IMG/VR virus record: IMGVR_UViG_2778261544_000010
Location: 1 to 32,649 of that record
Direction: 5' to 3' (one strand)
Length of the DNA stretch: 32,649 nt
DNA from: a virus
Taxonomy: Duplodnaviria; Heunggongvirae; Uroviricota; Caudoviricetes
Below the pieces are notes generated by a model. That model had not been told where the DNA came from and ran no database searches. It saw only the letters and a list, made by a program, of their open reading frames with translations. Numbering within the stretch: the stretch's first letter is position 1; each line of letters opens with the position of its first letter. Positions 8,470 to 21,400 of this stretch are shown here, in pieces. Both the position numbers and the translations under genes were made by a program.

Positions 8470-8844
8470 TTATTGAGGACGCTGGAGTAATCCGTGCTGA
8501 GCGAGAGTTAGAGCAATGTCATAAGACCCTTGCCTGTCTTTATAGCAAGTTTTATCAACTAGCTCAGCTTTGCTAATTCCGGGTAAATCAAGAATCAGAT
8601 TCGCAACTTCAATTGCCCTTTGGTACAACTTACCGATCTTTTTCTCCCCATGATGTGGTTTTACATTCTTCAGATAACCGCTATCCGCCAGAGCGAGAAA
8701 CGTTGCCCTTGGGCATCCCTTCTTTCTTGCCGATTCGCTTTCTGTAACCTCAGCGACAGCAGCATCCCATGCATCACGAGGGGATATAGAATTATCAGCA
8801 ACCAAATAATAAGCAATTAAAGCGGCGCGCGCGTATTGAGACAT
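8470..8844 (-). CDS. Hypothetical protein (124 aa from ATG 8844; 141 aa if GTG 8895 is used), cargo between Rz and cos
   Basis: Long ORF on the late strand in the lambda bor slot. No homolog recognised. Both candidate starts have weak RBS. It is followed by a hairpin plus T-run. Confidence 0.5.
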   Translation of the reverse strand: MSQYARAALIAYYLVADNSISPRDAWDAAVAEVTESESARKKGCPRATFLALADSGYLKNVKPHHGEKKIGKLYQRAIEVANLILDLPGISKAELVDKTCYKDRQGSYDIALTLAQHGLLQRPQ

Positions 8845-8882
8845 AATGCATCCATATACAAAAATCTTATGATAAGACTTTT

Positions 8883-9326
8883 CTAATATGAACACTGTGA
8901 TCTCACATACTCTTGCAGGCCATTCAATTGGTTAGTTATGGTTTCGATGCGCTCTCTGAGAACGAAATAATCCCGTTGAGCGGTGTCAGTAAGTCTGGGG
9001 CTGGCGCCATCATCCACGCCGGAGGCGGCGGTGGTTTTATGCATGTCCGGACAGACTGCTTTGACGTGCAGCCACTTACGACCAGCAGAAACATCAGCAC
9101 GAAGACTTTCGATAGTCGCGTTAGCATCAGCAAGCTCCTTTGTGTATCTGGCGTCGAGTTCTGCTACATCACGTTGACGCTTCTGCATGTCAGCGATAAT
9201 AGATGCGGCTTTATCACGCTGCTCTTTGTAGGCGATGGCGTTATCACGATAATGATTGACCGCCCATGACAGGCTGACGATGATGCAGATAACCAGAACG
9301 GAGATAATCGCGGTTACCCTGCTCAT
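8883..9326 (-). CDS. Rz: i-spanin Rz
   Basis: [30 protein letters not shown]... matches lambda Rz (N-terminal TM plus coiled coil). The ATG at 9326 overlaps the R stop (ATGA). Confidence 0.85.
8936..9133 (-). CDS. Rz1: o-spanin Rz1 (embedded in Rz, +1 frame)
   Basis: 65 aa ORF with lipobox LVVSGC and a proline run KPPPPPAW, like lambda Rz1 (VVVGCTSKQS...KPPPPPAW), fully nested in Rz. Confidence 0.7.
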
Positions 9327-9820
9327 TGTTGCCCCCACAAACAGACCTCACGCTCAATCTCACGACGAGTCATCAGGCCTTTCCATTGCTTACCGCCAGC
9401 GTATGTCCATCGACGTAGCTGGTCACATGCGCCCTTGATATCGCCCTGGTTTATTTTGCGAAGAAGAGTAGATGTTCTGAAATTGCCTGCGCCCACGTTA
9501 TAGACGAACGAGTAAAGAGCGCCGCGCGTTGTTTCCGGTATATCGACTTTGATGTACGGGTTAATTTGTCTGGCGACAGTGGCAAGGTCTTTATTCAGGA
9601 GGGCTTTGCATTCTGCTTCGGTATACGTTTTACCGAGCATAATGTCTTTTCCGGTGTGCCCGTAACATACAGTCCATACGCCAACGATATCTTTATATGG
9701 TATGTAGCTGACACCTTCCAGACCATCGTCACCACTCGGACCAGTGATAAGCACAGACGCTATGGCAACAGCCCCACCACCAATAGCAGCTGCAACAGCC
9801 TTGCGTAATGATGGCGACAT
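9323..9820 (-). CDS. R: SAR endolysin (phage 21 R-type lysozyme, GH24)
   Basis: 165 aa [27 protein letters not shown]... is near-identical to remembered P21 R, with a Gly/Ala-rich N-terminal SAR domain. Confidence 0.9.
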
Positions 9821-10035
9821 TATTCACCTCTCGCAGCCTTACGCTTGTCTTCTCTGATTTTGAAGTACAGATTTGTCAGATAAGTCAGGAAGCCCAGAAC
9901 CAGACTTCCCAGCACACCAATAGCAGCCCACTGTGATGGACTGACCTGATCAAGCCACTGTAAAAACCAGTAGCCAGCACTGCCTGCGGAGGTGCCGTAG
10001 GCAATGCCCGTTGTTAACTTGTCCATGGATTTCAT
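9820..10035 (-). CDS. S: Pinholin S21 (dual-start holin/antiholin)
   Basis: From ATG 10035, 71 aa [29 protein letters not shown]...RKAARGE matches phage 21 S. A second ATG sits at codon 4 and GGAGGTG precedes the first. The stop overlaps the R start. Confidence 0.9.
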
Positions 10036-10224
10036 AGTCTCACCTCCGCAAATAACGGATGGTGTACACGGTTCGGAACGAAGAGGGAAAGGTATAGAAG
10101 TTACATTAGCGTAAGGCTTGAACATCTATTCAAAAAGAAAAACGCCAGCGATTATTCTGGCGTAGCTGAAAGCATCATACAATTATCAAATACGAAAATC
10201 ACAAAATCATTAAAACGCATCACG

Positions 10225-10956
10225 TTACATCATTTCTTTTTCTAAAAAAAATCTTGATGAATATTGATGGGGAGGAACACCAAAATATCTTCTGAAAACA
10301 CTTACAAAATATGACGTGTTTTCATAACCGCATATCTCAGCAACTTTTCCAACAGAATATAAATTGTAGCTTAATAACCTTTCCGCCATCACCATTCGCT
10401 CTTCAAGAATTAATTTACTAAATGATAAGCCTTCGTGCTTTAATTTTCTTTTTAACAGACTTTCACTCAGATACAGCCTTGAAGATATATCACAAAGTCT
10501 CCATGCTGCAGATATATCCGTGTGAATAATAGCCTTAACTTTACTTCCTAAACTATTAAGACATCCAAATAAAAAACTTTGCACTATTTTCTCTGAAGAT
10601 AAGATAGCAAGACATGCAAGTGATATTTGATTTCTAACAACATCCACAGTTCTGCCATCACAATTCAAGCATGCAATCAAGTTCTTTAACAATGAAAAAT
10701 CTTCACATTCCACCATCAAGTATGCCGGATAAAACCTTCTTACAGAAAAAGGTGAGAGTGTGTTGCTTTTAAAGAAATCATTAACTGTTTTCTCTTCAAC
10801 ATCTACGATCATTACATGATCTATATTTGGTGAAAAAAAATCTTTTAAATTGTAATCAATGAGAACAGCACTTCCTTTTTTAAACAAAATATCTTCTTTA
10901 CCAATTCGGACATCAAACGAGTTCAACACCAAAATGATAGAACATATGTATGGCAT
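10225..10956 (-). CDS. AraC/XylS-family transcriptional regulator (cargo between Q and holin)
   Basis: C-terminal AraC-type HTH region (...VGKVAEICGYENTSYFVSVFRRYFGVPPHQY). ATG 10956 is preceded by AGGTGG. Very AT-rich gene on the late strand. Confidence 0.8.
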   Translation of the reverse strand: MPYICSIILVLNSFDVRIGKEDILFKKGSAVLIDYNLKDFFSPNIDHVMIVDVEEKTVNDFFKSNTLSPFSVRRFYPAYLMVECEDFSLLKNLIACLNCDGRTVDVVRNQISLACLAILSSEKIVQSFLFGCLNSLGSKVKAIIHTDISAAWRLCDISSRLYLSESLLKRKLKHEGLSFSKLILEERMVMAERLLSYNLYSVGKVAEICGYENTSYFVSVFRRYFGVPPHQYSSRFFLEKEMM

Positions 10957-11307
10957 ATTATCCACCTGATATCATTGGGGTTACACCAGGTAAGTATAGG
11001 TGGAAAATCAATATTCGCCAGTTCAACAATAAGGAAAATCTCATTGCATCACAAGTATAAAATTATGTATTTAACTCACAAAGACAAATTATTAAACCAA
11101 TCTGTTATATTATATATAGCTGCGTGGAATCATAATATTATATATTTTGACTGACATGTTTACCAACTTTAAGTTGCATCTCAATGGTTTCTTCAGCGTA
11201 AACAGAGTTTTTATACAAACTGACACTCTGGGTATCATAGTGTAGTTTTTACGATTGTAAATATCCTGCATGCAGGAACTCATCCTTTTGGATGATATCG
11301 CATACAA

Positions 11308-12267
11308 TTAATTTACCATCAGTCTTAGAGCCAGTTCGTCCGGATAGGGATCGAAGTAATTCTGTGTAAGCAAGTAATCATTAGGATACTCACCCAGATA
11401 ATGCTTCAGCAGAGTCAACGGCGCAAGAAGAGGCAATGTGCCAGAACGATAGTTAAGTATAACCTCACTCAACTCTTTACGCTGGCGTGTACTTAAGTAG
11501 TTACTAAAATACCCCTGTATATGCATCAGCACATTCGTGTGATTTTTACGTGATGCAGGTTTTCTGAGAATCGCCATCAGCTTATCACGATACACCTCAA
11601 AGTATGATTCAAGGTCCGCCCACTCGTGTATTGCAGCCACAAATGGTCCCATATCTTTATAGCCTGCCTGACTATGCGCCAACAACTGAAGCTTATAACG
11701 ACTATGAAAAGCTAATAACTCTCTTCTTGATAATTTCTCCTTGTAAAGGTGATTGAGCTCATGCAAAGCAAAAACTCTTTCAACAAAATTCTCACGAAGC
11801 ACTGGATCATGTAATCGCCCATCCTCTTCAACCGGTAGCCAGGAAAACTTTTCCATCAAAGTGCTCGTAAATAGTCCCACTCCATCTTTACGACCTCGAT
11901 TACCATTTTCATCATAGACACGCACGCGCTCCATGCCACAGCTGGGAGATTTAGCACAAACCACAAACCCCGATACATCCTTTAATTTGTCCATATAAGA
12001 ACGACTAAACTCTGTCATTCTCTCTGTCACATCCTCATTCTGGTCGTAGCTGAAACACATCCGTATATTTCCTTGCGTCGAGCGCACAAGACGTAGAGCA
12101 GGACGCGGAACTGGCAGCCCTATAGCCATTTCCGGACATACTGGTCTGAATGTTACCCATTCCACTAATTTGTCCATTAAAAAGTCAGCTCTTTTGTGAC
12201 CACCATCAAAACGAACAGCAGAACCGGCCAAACAACCGCTGATTCCAATCACAGGTTTTTTTATCAT
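11308..12267 (-). CDS. DUF523 (TudS-like thiouracil desulfidase fold) fused to DUF1722 (YbgA-like)
   Basis: N-terminus MIKKPVIGISGCLAGSAVRFDGG resembles the DUF523/TudS signature (..SACLLGxxVRYDGG) and the C-terminal half resembles YbgA/DUF1722, both from memory. RBS GGGGGAG. On the late strand. Confidence 0.7.
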   Translation of the reverse strand: MIKKPVIGISGCLAGSAVRFDGGHKRADFLMDKLVEWVTFRPVCPEMAIGLPVPRPALRLVRSTQGNIRMCFSYDQNEDVTERMTEFSRSYMDKLKDVSGFVVCAKSPSCGMERVRVYDENGNRGRKDGVGLFTSTLMEKFSWLPVEEDGRLHDPVLRENFVERVFALHELNHLYKEKLSRRELLAFHSRYKLQLLAHSQAGYKDMGPFVAAIHEWADLESYFEVYRDKLMAILRKPASRKNHTNVLMHIQGYFSNYLSTRQRKELSEVILNYRSGTLPLLAPLTLLKHYLGEYPNDYLLTQNYFDPYPDELALRLMVN

Positions 12268-12459
12268 ATTCTCCCCCTTGACTAATTCATTAACACATAA
12301 ACTGTGTAGTGCACGGAATAAATTGCCTTTCTGGCGTCATCACTGACAATTTTTCTGTTATGGACTATTCCTAATATAGTATGAAAGTTCTTTAAGTGAT
12401 CGGTCGTAATCATCTATCTTTCATACTTACTCTCAACTATCAAAAGTACAGGATTTATT

Positions 12460-12984
12460 ATGAAGTTATGGCCTGTGTTGACTGGCATTGCACTCTCTTT
12501 CACTCTTATAGCATGTAAGGCCCCGACACCACCTAAAGGTGTGCAGCCGATTACAAATTTTGACGCCAACCGCTACCTCGGAAAATGGTATGAAATAGCT
12601 CGCCTCGAGAACCGGTTCGAACGTGGTCTGGAACAGGTCAGCGCTACTTATGGAAAACGGAACGACGGAGGGATTCGTGTACTTAACCGTGGATACGATC
12701 CAACGAAAAATAAATGGAGCGAGAGCGAAGGTAAAGCATACTTTACTGGAGATACTAAAACTGCAGCGTTGAAGGTTTCGTTTTTTGGCCCCTTCTATGG
12801 TGGCTATAATGTAATCAAACTGGATGATGAGTATAAGTATGCTCTTGTCAGTGGTCCGAACAGAGAATACCTATGGATTCTGGCAAGGACCCCAACTATT
12901 CCAGATAAAGTAAAAGCAGACTATGCGCGAACCGCTCAAAAGTTGGGATTCAATGTCAATGAATTATTATGGGTTAAACAATAA
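12460..12984 (+). CDS. blc: Blc-like outer-membrane lipocalin lipoprotein
   Basis: 174 aa with lipobox LIAC and motifs NFDANRYLGKWYEIARLENRFERGLE, KVSFFGPFYGGYNVI and YLWILARTPT that match E. coli Blc. Plus strand, convergent with the late operon. Confidence 0.85.
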   Translation: MKLWPVLTGIALSFTLIACKAPTPPKGVQPITNFDANRYLGKWYEIARLENRFERGLEQVSATYGKRNDGGIRVLNRGYDPTKNKWSESEGKAYFTGDTKTAALKVSFFGPFYGGYNVIKLDDEYKYALVSGPNREYLWILARTPTIPDKVKADYARTAQKLGFNVNELLWVKQ

Positions 12985-13012
12985 AATCCCTACCCGAAAT
13001 AATACTTATTAG

Positions 13013-13040
13013 AAAAAAACCAGCCTTTGGGGAGGCTGGC
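13013..13040 (-). terminator. Intrinsic terminator just downstream of Q and the putative late promoter (tR'-like)
   Basis: Hairpin CCAGCCT-loop-AGGCTGG followed on the minus strand by TTTTTTT. On the plus strand it is preceded by an A-run, so it may also terminate blc. Confidence 0.55.
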
Positions 13041-13094
13041 TAAATCAGGAAACAAGCTGTTATATGATAATAACTACGTTGCGATTCCAACATT

Positions 13095-13130
13095 TAAAAT
13101 GTTAGACTAATGACAATCAGACAGCAACTT
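13095..13130 (-). promoter_or_regulatory. Putative late promoter pR' (Q target) between Q stop and terminator
   Basis: Minus-strand TTGCTG-17 nt-TAACAT about 60 nt upstream of the terminator hairpin. Position is analogous to lambda pR'/6S RNA. By-eye prediction only. Confidence 0.3.
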
Positions 13131-13139
13131 TTCCTTTAA

Positions 13140-13517
13140 TTATTTCGAACAATCAGCATCCATCTCCAATCGGAGATCCAACACCATCAGCATACCCTCC
13201 ACTACGCCCTCAGCTTTCTGGAGCATCCTGCCAACCCAACAATCAGATCGCCCATGCTTACGTGCAAGCGCCATAAAAGTCATGCCGCCGACATAATAGT
13301 CCACCAATAAATCATGCAAATCGCTGTTGTTCTTTTTCAGACGGGCCATGCACCCGCAAATGATCATCGCGTCATCGTCACAACATTGTGGGCGAGATTT
13401 TACTTTTGAAGGAATTAATCCCTTAAAACCGGCGGCAATGGACGACCAGGTCACATCTTCATGATTATTAGCCGCCCACGCTCCCCAACGCTCAAGAACC
13501 ATCTGAATATCACGCAT
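13140..13517 (-). CDS. Q: Late antiterminator Q (DLP12 QuuD-like)
   Basis: From ATG 13517, [33 protein letters not shown]...[16 protein letters not shown] closely matches remembered E. coli QuuD. Confidence 0.85.
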
Positions 13518-13602
13518 CAACTTACTCCACAAAAATCAGACCAGAACGCCAATTACAAACAAAAATCAACAAAACAGTATTAGTTGATTGTTATCTCTGA
13601 CT

Positions 13603-13725
13603 TCATACTCCTGCTCCTGTCAGGGTTTTGGCGTAATTCTTCAGTATTCGGTAATCGGTCAAAACAGAACCGGGGAAACGATATAATCGCAGACGCCTCC
13701 AGCGGTGGCGAAGAAGTTCTGCCAT
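13603..13725 (-). CDS. Small ORF (40 aa) between rusA and Q
   Basis: I translated it by hand: MAELLRHRWRRLRLYRFPGSVLTDYRILKNYAKTLTGAGV. Same slot as DLP12 ylcG, but I cannot verify identity. Weak RBS. Confidence 0.3.
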   Translation of the reverse strand: MAELLRHRWRRLRLYRFPGSVLTDYRILKNYAKTLTGAGV

Positions 13726-15201: not shown

Positions 15202-15711
15202 TTAGTCTGCCAAGTCTTCCTCAGTCGCAACTGGGTAATTCCAAATATCAAAAAAAGCTATAGCCTCCTGCCATTTGCTCCATAAGTTATCAAGTACTTG
15301 TGTAGGTTCCGTACTTTTAAAAACAGAATCAGCCGCATCACCGTTATGAACTTCCTCGTACAGTTCCATTATTAGCAGATTAACAAAGTACTGTTTCAAC
15401 ATTAATGCCTGATTACCTTCTTTCTGCTGGCTATCCTGCTTGATGATCTCCATCGCCCGTACTAGGCACCTGATGATATCCGCTGCATCATTAACGCTCC
15501 ATTCAGATCCGCGCTTATCTTTAGCTGATGAATTGGCTCTCTCAGCGCAAGCCTTTAAAGACTCATAAAGGTAAACTCTATTTTGTAGCTGCAGCACTTT
15601 TTTTGACGTGTACCAACTTGCAAGCGCCGACCCCGCTGCGGCTAATGTGCCAAACGCAGAAATGCCTGCTGCTATTGCACTTAAGTCGGCACTGTCAAAG
15701 TTCCACATCAT
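15202..15711 (-). CDS. Hypothetical membrane-anchored protein (169 aa), nin-region cargo
   Basis: Tandem ATG start preceded by AAGGTG. N-terminal hydrophobic helix LSAIAAGISAFGTLAAAGSALASW then a soluble domain. AT-rich. No homolog recognised. Confidence 0.6.
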   Translation of the reverse strand: MMWNFDSADLSAIAAGISAFGTLAAAGSALASWYTSKKVLQLQNRVYLYESLKACAERANSSAKDKRGSEWSVNDAADIIRCLVRAMEIIKQDSQQKEGNQALMLKQYFVNLLIMELYEEVHNGDAADSVFKSTEPTQVLDNLWSKWQEAIAFFDIWNYPVATEEDLAD

Positions 15712-17388: not shown

Positions 17389-18432
17389 ATGAAAATTAAC
17401 AAGATATTATCATCTGCAACACTATTGTATGGTATGTCAATGGCCATGTCGGTCGGGAGTTGTGCAACACCTGTCCAGACTAATCTTCCTGGTTACACCC
17501 CGGGTGCAGATATCATTAGTGTTTCACCGACCAGAAACCAGGTCGATCTCATTGGTGATGTTGTTTATTCCCAGATAAAAGGAACTCGTTCTGTCAGACA
17601 GCTTCACATGTCAGTTCTTGTCCCGCGAACAAATGATTTAAAACCAGCCATTATTTATTATCCCGGCGGCGGATTCATGTCTTCTGAACATGACAAATTT
17701 ATTGAAATGAGAATGGCTCTGGCAGAAGCTGGTTTTGTTGTGGCCGCTGTAGAATACAGAACAATTCCTGATACATTTCCAGCACCAGTTGAGGATGGAA
17801 AAGCTGCAATACGTTACCTGAGAGAGCATGCCAGCAATTATGGGATTGATCCTCAAAGAATCGGAGTTCTGGGTGACTCTGCCGGTGGATGGCTTGCTCA
17901 GATGATGGGAACTACAAATGGTGACAAAACCTTTGATAAAGGTGACTTTCTTCAGCAATCCTCAGATGTTCAGGCAGTTGCCACACTTTATGGGATTTCT
18001 GACTTGTTGAATATTGGCGAAGGGTTCCCTGAATCAGTGCAGGAGGTTCATCGCTCTCCTGCCGTAACCGAAGCCTTAATGATCAATGGCCCTGCATTCA
18101 GAGATTTTGCGGGAGCCCCCATCACAGCGTCAAAAGAAAAAGCGCTAAACGCCAGTCCAATCGGACATATGAAAGGAGTAAAACCCCCATTTCTTATTAT
18201 GCATGGTAGCAAAGACACTCTGGTTTCACCTGAGCAAAGCGCCAAACTATTCAGGATGTTGAAGAAGAACGGCGATAACGCTGAGTACGTGCTAGTAGAA
18301 GGGGCTGAGCATGGCGATGATACATGGTATCAGCCAATTATTATAAACAGAGTCGTTGAGTGGTTTACTAAAAACCTGGGAGCCCCCATAAAAACCACTA
18401 ACCAACAACAGAACCCAAACGCTAACCTGTAA
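17389..18432 (+). CDS. Secreted alpha/beta-hydrolase (esterase/lipase family)
   Basis: Signal peptide MKINKILSSATLLYGMSMAMSVGSC, oxyanion-hole motif YYPGGGF, nucleophile motif GDSAGGW, C-terminal HG. Confidence 0.8.
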   Translation: MKINKILSSATLLYGMSMAMSVGSCATPVQTNLPGYTPGADIISVSPTRNQVDLIGDVVYSQIKGTRSVRQLHMSVLVPRTNDLKPAIIYYPGGGFMSSEHDKFIEMRMALAEAGFVVAAVEYRTIPDTFPAPVEDGKAAIRYLREHASNYGIDPQRIGVLGDSAGGWLAQMMGTTNGDKTFDKGDFLQQSSDVQAVATLYGISDLLNIGEGFPESVQEVHRSPAVTEALMINGPAFRDFAGAPITASKEKALNASPIGHMKGVKPPFLIMHGSKDTLVSPEQSAKLFRMLKKNGDNAEYVLVEGAEHGDDTWYQPIIINRVVEWFTKNLGAPIKTTNQQQNPNANL

Positions 18433-18470
18433 AAAGAGGGAGGGCTTAGCCCTCCCTATTCTGTTTTGTT
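18431..18470. terminator. Bidirectional intrinsic terminator between the convergent esterase and adhesin genes
   Basis: AAAAA-AGGGAGGG-CTTAG-CCCTCCCT-ATTCTGTTTTGTT: GC-rich 8-bp stem with T-rich flanks on both strands. Confidence 0.6.
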
Positions 18471-21400
18471 AACTGTCCTTTTCAGGAAGTTTTACAACAA
18501 AAGTTGTTAATTCTTTCTCATACGTTTTTTTACTATTTGTTATTTTGGCCTTAATCCAGTGATAACCGCTTTCATAGGTGCTGAACTCCGAGGCAGCGTT
18601 ACCTGTCGAGCTTAACGTTACTGTAGCAGGTTCCATTTTGACGCGTTGAGAGGTTGGGCTATCTTCACTACCAGCAGAAAACTCAACCGTACCAGACAAT
18701 GGGTTTCCAAAATGATCGACAAATCGAGCATAAATACCTGTTGGAGAGCCGTCATTAACCTCATAACCATAGTCTTTTTCAAGACTCAGAACCCCATTTG
18801 CTTCATCAGCGTACAGGGAGAATGATTTCACCGCGCTAACATCACTACCAAGTTCGTTTAAGGTCGCCGTTAATTTATACGAACCAGCCGTTCGACCATG
18901 TACGCTTACCGTAGCCTGGCCGCGCTCATCAGTCGTTACTGTGGTTTTATCAACCACCAACGCACCATATTTGGACGGTCCAGAGGTCTTAATATTCAGT
19001 GCTCGACCACTTAATGCTTCGCCTGACGTATTTTTCAGATGCAACGTAAATGTAAGATTGTTGGAATCGCTCACAACAGCAGAAGATACAGATGATGTGA
19101 TATCCAACACAGCATCCTTCACATCCGTCATGGCATCAATATTTTGGCTTGCAGTTATGCGTTTCCCATCCTGAACATGCTCGGCCTGAATTGTGTACTG
19201 GCCCGATTTCGATGCAGTGAACTGCGTTGATGCCTTTCCATAAGCATCCAGCTGCAGTTTACTGCTGGTCAATGATGCTCCCGTCGATGGGGTGATCGTT
19301 AAATTTACATCACCGGTAAATGCATTGTTATTGGCATCAACCAACTGAATGTCTACTGTTGCACTTTCACTGCTATCGGCCACAATCTGCTGTTTTGATA
19401 CACTCATAGTGAGTTCTGCGGAAGCAATATCTGGCACAAAAGTTAACTTAACGCTGCCAGATTCCACACTATTAGAACCATCAGTCACCCGTGCAGTTAC
19501 CGTGTACTCACCAGCTTTCACCGTTGTAACTGGTACAGAAACATGCCCTGTTGAATCAGTCACGATATTTGTCGGCACAGACAACCCTTCAGATGAGGTA
19601 ATGAGCTGAACCTTCTGTCCATTAACCGACGCATTAGTATTATTTGTTAGCTGAACATTCAATACCGCAGCATCTTTACCATTAGCAGGGATATTCGAAA
19701 TTAAGCTACTGTTTTCAGGCGTCAGTGACAGTGAAGCTCCGCTCATATTTGATGCAAAGGTCACAGTTAACTCAGTAGATACCTGAGGCCCAGCATGAGC
19801 TTTAATCACGTAAGAACCTGGAGTGGAGCTTATTAACGCAAAAACAGCATTACCATTTTCGTCAGTTGACACTGCATGTTCACCACCAACTTGAGTTATC
19901 CCCGCAGGTAAGGACAACGTAACAGCATAACCAGGAACAACATTGCCGAAACGATCAGCAAGACTTACAGTCACTGTATTCTGTTGTTTTCCATCAGCCA
20001 ATGCATTATTTTTACTGGCTTCAATACGAGAGAACGCGAACTGAATTCGGTCTTCCATAAAGGAGATTTCTTTCTCAAGGTCGGAGAAATCGTGACGATC
20101 CGATTTAACACCGATCCGAATCTTATCTGCTCGTTTTGAAGTTACTGTTGCGCTATAGACACCATCTTTTTCCGTTACAGTCCCAAACTCGACTCCTTCA
20201 GCCTGGTTAATGGCATAAAAGCTCAGAGTATTATCACCTGTGATTGCATTTCCTTGTGAATCCTTCACTGCCAGTTGTAGATTAATATTGTAACCAACTA
20301 CCTGCTCTGCTGGTGCAGCGGTTAAAACAGCACTGACCTCAGATTCAGGTTCTGTTGCTGCTGTTTGCTTAATACTGAGAGTAAAGGTTTTTCCCTGAAC
20401 TTTTGCAGTTACACGTACCGTACCAGCCTGCGAACCAGCAGTCAGAACAGAGCGATATACCCCAGCAGAGATTTCCTCTACCGCGCCTAATGACGGGGCA
20501 GTTACCGTTTCACGCTGTCGAGCACTATTGCTATCTGCTGTAAATTCCACTGACATTTCAATGTCATCAGCCAGTCCGGTTAATGCCTTACCGTTACTGT
20601 CTTTCAGGCTTAATACTATCGGATAAGTAGATTGGCTATCAGCAGAGATCGTCGGCGACGAATCTCCATCCAGTGTAAAAGACGAATCAGCTGTCGATAC
20701 ATCACTATCAGTGATGGCTGCCTGCTTAATATTCAGAGTAAAGGTTTTTCCCTGAACTTTTGCGGTTACACGTACCGTACCAGCCTGCGAACCAGCAGTC
20801 AGAACAGAGCGATATACCCCAGCAGAGATTTCCTCTACCGCGCCTAATGACGGGGCAGTTACCGTTTCACGCTGTCGAGCACTATTGCTATCTGCTGTAA
20901 ATTCCACTGACATTTCAATGTCATCAGCCAGTCCGGTTAATGCCTTACCGTTACTGTCTTTCAGGCTTAATACTATCGGATAAGTAGATTGGCTATCAGC
21001 AGAGATCGTCGGCGACGAATCTCCATCCAGTGTAAAAGACGAATCAGCTGTCGATACACCACTATCAGTAACGCTAATATTCATCACGGCATAGTTGGAC
21101 ACGTTGCCTCTGTTATCCTGTACTGTGGCTCCAACACTCCACGAATTTACACCTTCGCTTTTATAAGCCGGTAAAGTGATCTGCCATGATGTGCCATTTC
21201 CACTGATCTTGCCGCCAGCCGCAGTGAATGCACTATCATTCCACTGTACAGACTTGATACCACCACTGGCATTGTTGACTGTCAGTGTTACAGGGATGAT
21301 TGATTCCCCCTCCCCCTGAATAGACTCTGGCAAACTGATTTTCAGTGCATGCTTTTTCTTGTACTCCAGAACAATGTTGTTATTTCGTTCAACAAAATCA

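Follow-up and report, generated by a model that had tools for sequence, protein, structure and literature searches.

The segment between the antiterminator gene Q and the holin gene S is a cargo slot that is filled with stx in the Shiga toxin (Stx) phages, with nmpC in phages of the DLP12/434 type and with psrA in prophage Sp4 of Escherichia coli O157. In Stx phages the late promoter pR' has been mapped next to Q, 258 nucleotides (nt) upstream of the terminator tR' (Sy et al., 2020, PMC7547250). Here we analysed a stretch of 32,649 nt (the window; IMG/VR virus record IMGVR_UViG_2778261544_000010, positions 1 to 32,649), which is a complete lambdoid E. coli prophage in which the minus strand carries the late genes. 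Its Q-S slot contains three genes: blc, rudS and a gene for an AraC/XylS regulator. We consider them to be a composite moron cassette that serves the host from its own promoters and is read through under the control of Q on induction, and put the probability of this reading at roughly 60%.

The closest relative of the rudS gene has been assayed. RudS has been defined as TudS fused to DUF1722, and overexpression in E. coli of any of six RudS orthologs, among them RudS_vir of phage 1H12, lowers the 4-thiouridine (s4U) content of tRNA (Jamontas et al., NAR 2024, PMC11417400). RudS overexpression also reduced the growth delay that is induced by ultraviolet A light (UVA). The same paper states that E. 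coli is without RudS, and it does not discuss the prophage context or the regulation of rudS_vir.

The cassette in the Q-S slot

The gene order is Q, tR' homolog, blc (reversed), rudS, araC and S, with the following elements (the minus strand is the late strand):

13140-13517, minus strand: antiterminator gene Q, QuuD/Stx-phage type, 125 amino acids (PF06530, E value 2.5e-51; phrog_79)
13057-13168, minus strand: putative late promoter (pR') region with three candidates
13012-13041, minus strand: tR'-like intrinsic terminator, 9-bp GC-rich stem and T7 (terminator scan; minimum free energy -14.9 kcal/mol)
12460-12984, plus strand: blc paralog, outer-membrane lipocalin lipoprotein (NF007786; PF08212, E value 1.9e-43)
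12268-12459, no strand assigned: spacer between the divergent blc and rudS genes, 192 nt with 34% GC, presumed site of promoters of the two genes; arrangement as in Citrobacter sedlakii (L014)
11308-12267, minus strand: rudS, TudS and DUF1722 fusion, 319 amino acids (PF04463, PF08349)
10957-11307, minus strand: AT-rich spacer (32% GC), presumed to hold the regulator gene's own promoter (sigma-70-like sites)
10225-10956/10965, minus strand: AraC/XylS regulator gene, PatE/PsrA/PsrB (YdeO-like) group, 243 amino acids (PF12833, E value 1.1e-14; PF00165)
10133-10163, minus strand: terminator-like hairpin and T-run before the holin gene (terminator scan; minimum free energy -11.3 kcal/mol)
9820-10035, 9323-9820 and 8883-9338, minus strand: lysis genes S, R and Rz (PF04971, PF00959, PF03245)

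S encodes a S21-type holin and is followed by the endolysin and Rz genes; these are the first essential late genes 3' of the cassette. The true start of the holin gene is the ATG at 10035, and the mechanical open reading frame (ORF) start at 10125 is not real.

An initial annotation of this DNA had described AT-rich cargo of about 2.9 kb (10225-13140) between Q and the holin gene, and all elements it described are present. This extent was roughly right; the exchanged cassette is slightly wider (10047-13157, 3.1 kb), as set by comparison with the porin-carrying sister phage 4A7. Homology to 4A7 ends at 13158, six codons short of the Q stop, and restarts ten bases ahead of the holin ATG, at 10046; 5' of S nothing is shared with 4A7 past 10 bp. 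Included in the exchange are the late promoter/terminator segment and six codons at the end of Q. Two of the three genes had been named, both correctly placed on the late strand; the third, blc on the plus strand, had gone unnamed.

The cassette has a GC content of 38%, compared to 48% for the whole window. The regulator gene has 32%, rudS 43% and blc 44%, the three spacers that separate Q, blc, rudS and the regulator gene 32-35% and the spacer between the regulator gene and S 40%; Q and the lysis genes have 48-51%. Phages 4A7, 434 and Turner carry an nmpC/OmpD-type porin gene in place of the cassette; Q and the lysis genes are shared between 4A7 and the window. The segment thus has a deviant composition, is replaced in related phages and lies between genes that are otherwise adjacent, as a moron does in the sense of Hendrix and Juhala. 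The porin cassette of DLP12, 434 and 4A7 is swapped at the same boundaries behind the same type of Q, and its gene is likewise antisense to the late transcript right after Q. In contrast to the cassette analysed here, it has one gene instead of three and none on the late strand.

The initial annotation had also placed the cargo like the stx genes, and this is borne out. The DNA of Q (125 amino acids, or 130 if started at the upstream TTG at 13532) is 76-78% identical to Q of many Stx1 and Stx2 phages; Q21 is only distantly related (PDB 6p18, E value 1.9e-8). Positions 13063-13012 match the 3' end of StxS/tR' of the Stx2 phage Min27 in 42/50 bases with a score of 55, and the maximum score in 500 shuffles was 31. 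Because Q and tR' are homologous to their Stx-phage counterparts, we take the stx-like slot to be real by homology and not only by analogy. As for stx in 933W, Sp5 and Min27, cargo lies on the late strand between Q/pR'/tR' and S; this applies to rudS and the regulator gene and not to blc. There are also differences to the Stx phages. In the window tR' ends about 128 nt past the Q stop, compared to about 280 nt in Min27. The cassette is free of tRNA genes, one of its genes runs antisense, its cargo is separated from S by a conserved terminator, and none of its products is a secreted toxin whose release depends on lysis.

Three pR' candidates were found, all of them upstream of tR' and the cargo. 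The first, TGGAGA-18-AATAAT (13168-13139), is the only one listed by the promoter scan, with 9/12 matches. The second is TTGCTG-17-TAACAT (13127-13099), and the third TATCAT (13069-13064), followed by ATAACAG. The motif TA..AT-ATAACAG is kept in the window, in 1H12 and also in the 4A7 porin cassette, which is unrelated in other respects. In Min27 the transcription start site that we infer from the data of Sy et al., which is not a mapped position, falls behind a TATCAT. Alignments of the promoter-proximal sequences of the window, 1H12, 4A7, Min27 and Sp4 did not score above shuffle controls, the tR' part excepted.

The short pR'-tR' RNA (13012-13063, minus strand) is an observation in its own right. 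In Stx phages StxS is an Hfq-binding small RNA (PMC7547250), and with 42/50 bases of the StxS 3' end kept, the RNA of this non-Stx phage may be a StxS-like regulatory RNA present in about 20% of E. coli genomes.

Several other explanations of the cassette were considered. A defence system was rejected; PADLOC matched none of the three cargo proteins to a defence model. A tRNA-gene-bearing stx-like cassette was rejected because no tRNA genes were found. An ORF-calling artefact was likewise considered and rejected. Rfam searches of 9700-13700 gave only sub-threshold chance matches. The three cargo proteins are covered by the PHROGs phrog_1450, phrog_3275 and phrog_2809, all of which are annotated "unknown function".

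The cargo genes

The initial annotation had called a DUF523/DUF1722 fusion and an AraC-family protein, and domain searches support both calls. The fusion has the domain order of RudS, with PF04463 at residues 7-149 (E value 7.9e-40) followed by PF08349 at residues 192-309 (E value 2.2e-40). It is 93% identical in amino acids to RudS_vir (H3V29_gp66), which is likewise 319 amino acids long and encoded by the orthologous gene in the same island and slot of 1H12; none of the 22 substitutions is at a catalytic position. C12, C44, E46, S107, S109 and C110 are the same as in RudS_vir, and the Cys ligands of the [4Fe-4S] cluster (Cys12, Cys44 and Cys110 in RudS_vir; PMC11417400, Table 1) and the catalytic Glu and Ser residues are thus present. 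The CPE motif aligns with that of TudS (6z92). The TudS-type enzyme of the initial annotation is not an orphan: we assign the fusion protein as RudS, a tRNA 4-thiouridine desulfidase, and s4U removal in vivo has been shown for its 93%-identical ortholog (PMC11417400).

A prophage copy of such an enzyme had been called unusual, which does not hold. We found rudS in 1064-1136 of 5426 complete E. coli genomes (about 20%), essentially always on the chromosome, and blc is a frequent moron of lambda phages, listed in more than half of 19 from the infant gut (Mathieu et al., 2020, PMC6969025). About one fifth of the complete E. coli genomes carries the RudS cassette, in contrast to the literature view of E. 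coli as being without the enzyme. Among phage records, full-length RudS is confined to this one lambdoid lineage. In the literature searched we found no paper that links RudS with a prophage context; both the position of RudS_vir in the antitermination-controlled stx slot and the acquisition of RudS by E. coli only via this lambdoid prophage cassette appear not to have been noted there. RudS in the same slot as Shiga toxin would link prophage induction, classically by ultraviolet (UV) light, with a UVA-sensing tRNA modification. Earlier publications already cover the slot, the moron principle, what the orthologous enzyme does, the moron status of blc and the occurrence of AraC-type regulators behind Q, and current concepts are left unchanged.

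The regulator (phrog_1450) has both a C-terminal double helix-turn-helix AraC domain and full-length similarity to the PatE/Psr proteins. Its best NCBIfam model is YdeO (NF007407), with 131 bits against a cut-off of 348, which makes it YdeO-like and not YdeO. It is 54% identical over 235 amino acids to ECs_0287 of strain Sakai and 48% over 159 amino acids to PsrA (ECs_1087). With PsrA, PsrB and PatE of O157:H7 it shares family, size, full-length similarity of 48-54% and a very AT-rich gene. It differs from them as a distinct paralog with about 50% identity that occurs mostly in non-O157 strains. We class it as a new, uncharacterised paralog in this prophage group, which rewires acid resistance: PatE, PsrA and PsrB activate GadE/HdeA (AR2 acid resistance) in lysogens (PMC10877973), and the regulator of the window probably feeds into the same circuit. 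An AraC-type regulator in this slot is not new, as Sp4 has psrA behind its Q gene, likewise on the late strand and followed by ileZ-argN-argO. Sigma-70-like sites ahead of the regulator gene, at 11261-11234 and 11166-11137, each match 10/12 positions and are suggestive only.

Comparison of the island alleles (10225-10956 of the window with 1904-2635 of L002, phage 1H12) showed amino acid identities of 82% for the regulator, 97% for blc and 93% for rudS. This suggests a faster evolution or a partial replacement of the regulator gene.

Blc scores 313.8 bits over the full length of the curated model NF007786 (cut-off 267). The protein reads MKLWPVLTGIALSFTLIAC, with the lipobox LIAC and Cys19. 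The gene converges on Q, and only the tR' hairpin separates the two (12985-13140). This hairpin has no U-tract on the plus strand; therefore, readthrough from blc could give an RNA antisense to Q, like paQ of lambda.

On the chromosomes of Enterobacter, Leclercia and some Citrobacter a blc paralog and rudS are divergent neighbours, as they are in the phage, and the amino acid identity to these copies is about 80% for blc and about 75% for rudS. ORF319 of Salmonella (RudS_ST) is likewise counted among the closest known systems. In C. sedlakii the two genes are directly adjacent with a spacer of 187 nt, compared to 192 nt in the window. In Enterobacter a MerR/MlrA-like regulator gene and a transthyretin-like gene, neither of them in the phage, lie between blc and rudS (the merR-hiuH pair). 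The chromosomal clusters examined have no AraC homolog, which points to a composite island, made of the chromosomal pair and a separately acquired AT-rich regulator gene.

In Enterobacter hormaechei the cluster (L017, 4021-6954) reads blc, MerR (MlrA-like), transthyretin-like, rudS. Such an order could reflect a conserved stress regulon, from which the phage took only the two flanking genes.

Expression in the lysogen and on induction

According to the reading that we favour, constitutive pR' transcripts in the lysogen would stop at the tR' hairpin (13041-13012), leaving a short RNA that keeps the 3' end of StxS. Any expression of the cargo genes would then rely on promoters of their own, which are probably H-NS-sensitive, and transcription of these genes would end at the hairpin before S (10163-10133), which would shield the holin gene. 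The selected benefit would go mainly to the host, with RudS taking UVA-sensitive s4U off tRNA and Blc acting as an envelope lipoprotein. Because the repressor carries an S24 autocleavage domain, the phage should be SOS-inducible. On induction, repressor cleavage would allow Q to load at pR' and polymerase to pass tR'. The transcript would start with about 750 nt of untranslated antisense-blc RNA, continue in sense through rudS and the regulator gene and, with the Q-modified polymerase ignoring the pre-S terminator, reach S-R-Rz and the morphogenesis genes.

The arrangement argues strongly for the readthrough. The island is found in viable phages (IdasGreatGrand with 99.4% identity, 1H12 and the Lambda_ev series with 90%), and therefore the late transcript must cross it. 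It is thus very likely that rudS and the regulator gene are transcribed by Q-driven readthrough, and as both are on the late strand, they would unavoidably receive a stx-like transcription burst. In contrast, blc cannot be expressed from the late transcript since it lies on the opposite strand. Of the IMG/VR loci with this Q allele, all 56 whose downstream sequence spans 3.5 kb or more and reaches the lysis genes show the order Q, blc (reversed), rudS, araC, holin; three further loci end before the lysis genes. The scan with Q gave near-identical alleles only and thus documents linkage and no new diversity.

The initial annotation had the cargo switched on at induction. This seems to be only part of the picture, because the pre-S terminator is conserved and the cassette is retained in defective prophages; it also resembles self-contained morons that serve the lysogen. 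Three diverged alleles (the window, 1H12 and E. coli HS) have an identical stem and T-run before S, with one change in the loop, and differ in the flanks; such invariance is expected if the terminator must keep cargo transcription from the holin gene. E. coli HS has an intact Q-blc-rudS-araC-essQ segment in a defective Qin-like remnant without early genes (L154, 2751-6486). In the defective Qin-like remnant of BL21 (L155, 2751-5340) rudS is cut after 147 nt by IS3, and several other genomes have the insertion sequences IS1, IS3 or IS911 inside the island. All three cargo genes are under purifying selection: between the alleles of the window and 1H12, blc has a ratio of nonsynonymous to synonymous substitutions (dN/dS) of 0.08, rudS one of 0.11 and the regulator gene one of 0.26. 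Together with the invariant terminator, the survival in defective prophages and the opposite direction of blc, this makes the cassette look self-contained, serving the lysogen besides riding on the late transcript. Four elements of the favoured reading are shown: which genes these are, that the RudS ortholog is active, that Q and tR' are homologous to those of the Stx phages and that the cassette is exchangeable.

Several points weigh against it. Three candidates for the start of pR' are left, none of them strong. Promoter-like sites in the region are not above shuffles (13 found, 12 expected), and the blc-rudS spacer has a single weak sigma-70-like match (12436-12409). This spacer shows no DNA homology to the chromosomal one, and a co-capture of the pair with its native promoters is therefore not supported. 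The chromosomal homologs are only 75-80% identical and have a GC content of 57-61% compared to 43-44% here; no donor is named, since these copies are too distant, their GC content is too high and the spacers share no homology. For the targets of the regulator the only guide is paralogs with about 50% identity. One of these, ECs_0287, is the only AraC-type gene of Sakai prophage Sp1 and is presumed to be PatE (z0321), because Sp1 corresponds to OI-8 and has no other AraC-type gene. Promoter positions, readthrough, regulator targets and the effect on fitness are all deduced from the architecture and from relatives.

The explanation that survives best besides the favoured one is possible, though unlikely. 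It takes rudS and the regulator gene as primarily lytic genes timed by Q: with UV light as a natural inducer, a late burst of RudS would erase s4U in the induced cell, and cross-linking of tRNA by UVA and a stringent shutdown would be avoided during late protein synthesis. The co-orientation of both genes with the late operon in the stx slot, the SOS-cleavable type of the repressor and the intact rudS (dN/dS 0.11) in viable phages would fit. However, avoidance of collisions alone would give the same co-orientation, and the cassette is intact in a defective prophage without early genes. In addition, a conserved terminator isolates it from S and one of its genes is reversed. Full-length RudS in one phage lineage only means that the arrangement is without independent replication, and RudS_vir is a weaker tRNA desulfidase relative to its protein level (PMC11417400).

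More doubtful is that the Q-driven RudS burst is an adaptive, phage-programmed edit of the host epitranscriptome in which UV induction strips s4U8, the UVA sensor, from host tRNA. If true, sunlight could not cross-link tRNA or trigger the stringent response during late protein synthesis, and RudS would be the first case of a prophage induction circuit that controls an eraser of a tRNA modification. The dying host would in addition be reprogrammed by the antisense transcription across blc and by the AraC regulator that is transcribed along with rudS.

We regard it as improbable that the enzyme acts mainly on free thiolated bases or nucleotides (4-thiouracil or 4-thio-UMP) in a TudS-like salvage or detoxification, and not on tRNA. 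The TudS domain and the catalytic residues are intact, and the idea of a thiouracil-type substrate in the initial annotation retains a little support: in the rescue of a uracil auxotroph on 4-thiouracil RudS_vir had the shortest lag of the RudS proteins tested, and its tRNA desulfidation looked rather low for its good protein level (PMC11417400). However, all RudS variants, among them RudS_vir, lowered tRNA s4U in vivo, which stand-alone TudS did not, and none of them supported growth as TudS did (PMC11417400). DUF1722, which has been implicated in tRNA binding (PMC11417400), is moreover kept under purifying selection in the phage.

Least probable is that the island lies outside the late transcript, with a promoter or qut site between the regulator gene and S driving the lysis and morphogenesis genes: no single pR' start beside Q stands out, the candidates are weak by consensus and a TTGTGA-19-TATGAT-like sequence lies ahead of the pre-S hairpin, but no late-strand promoter-like site passes the scan in 10036-10224 (the 189 nt before the holin gene), this segment holds a terminator and not an antitermination cassette, it shares nothing with 4A7 despite their common Q, and right after Q comes the counterpart of the Stx-phage tR'; in Stx phages pR' has been mapped next to Q (PMC7547250).

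Other genes of the prophage

The remaining features of the prophage are:

31486-32649: integrase gene
25222-25977: gene for a CI-type repressor with S24 autocleavage domain
22630-24347: replication genes O and P
nin region: genes for YbcO and RusA
from 7643 downwards: gene for the small terminase subunit

A second cargo block is located in the nin region, between gene P and an antirepressor-like gene (17389-22380). It encodes an intimin/invasin-like inverse autotransporter of 1303 amino acids on the minus strand (IAT_beta and Big_1/Invasin_D3 repeats) and, divergently, an alpha/beta hydrolase (BD-FAE). Another ORF of the nin region (15202-15711, minus strand, 169 amino acids) has a low GC content of 41-44%; Pfam and PADLOC gave no match to it, and phrog_1779 (unknown function) is its sole match. 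Between Rz and the terminase genes a DUF6979 gene is found (8470-8895, minus strand). Sister phages carry other genes there, bor in 1H12 and a Rha-family gene in L003, which makes this position another exchangeable moron site.

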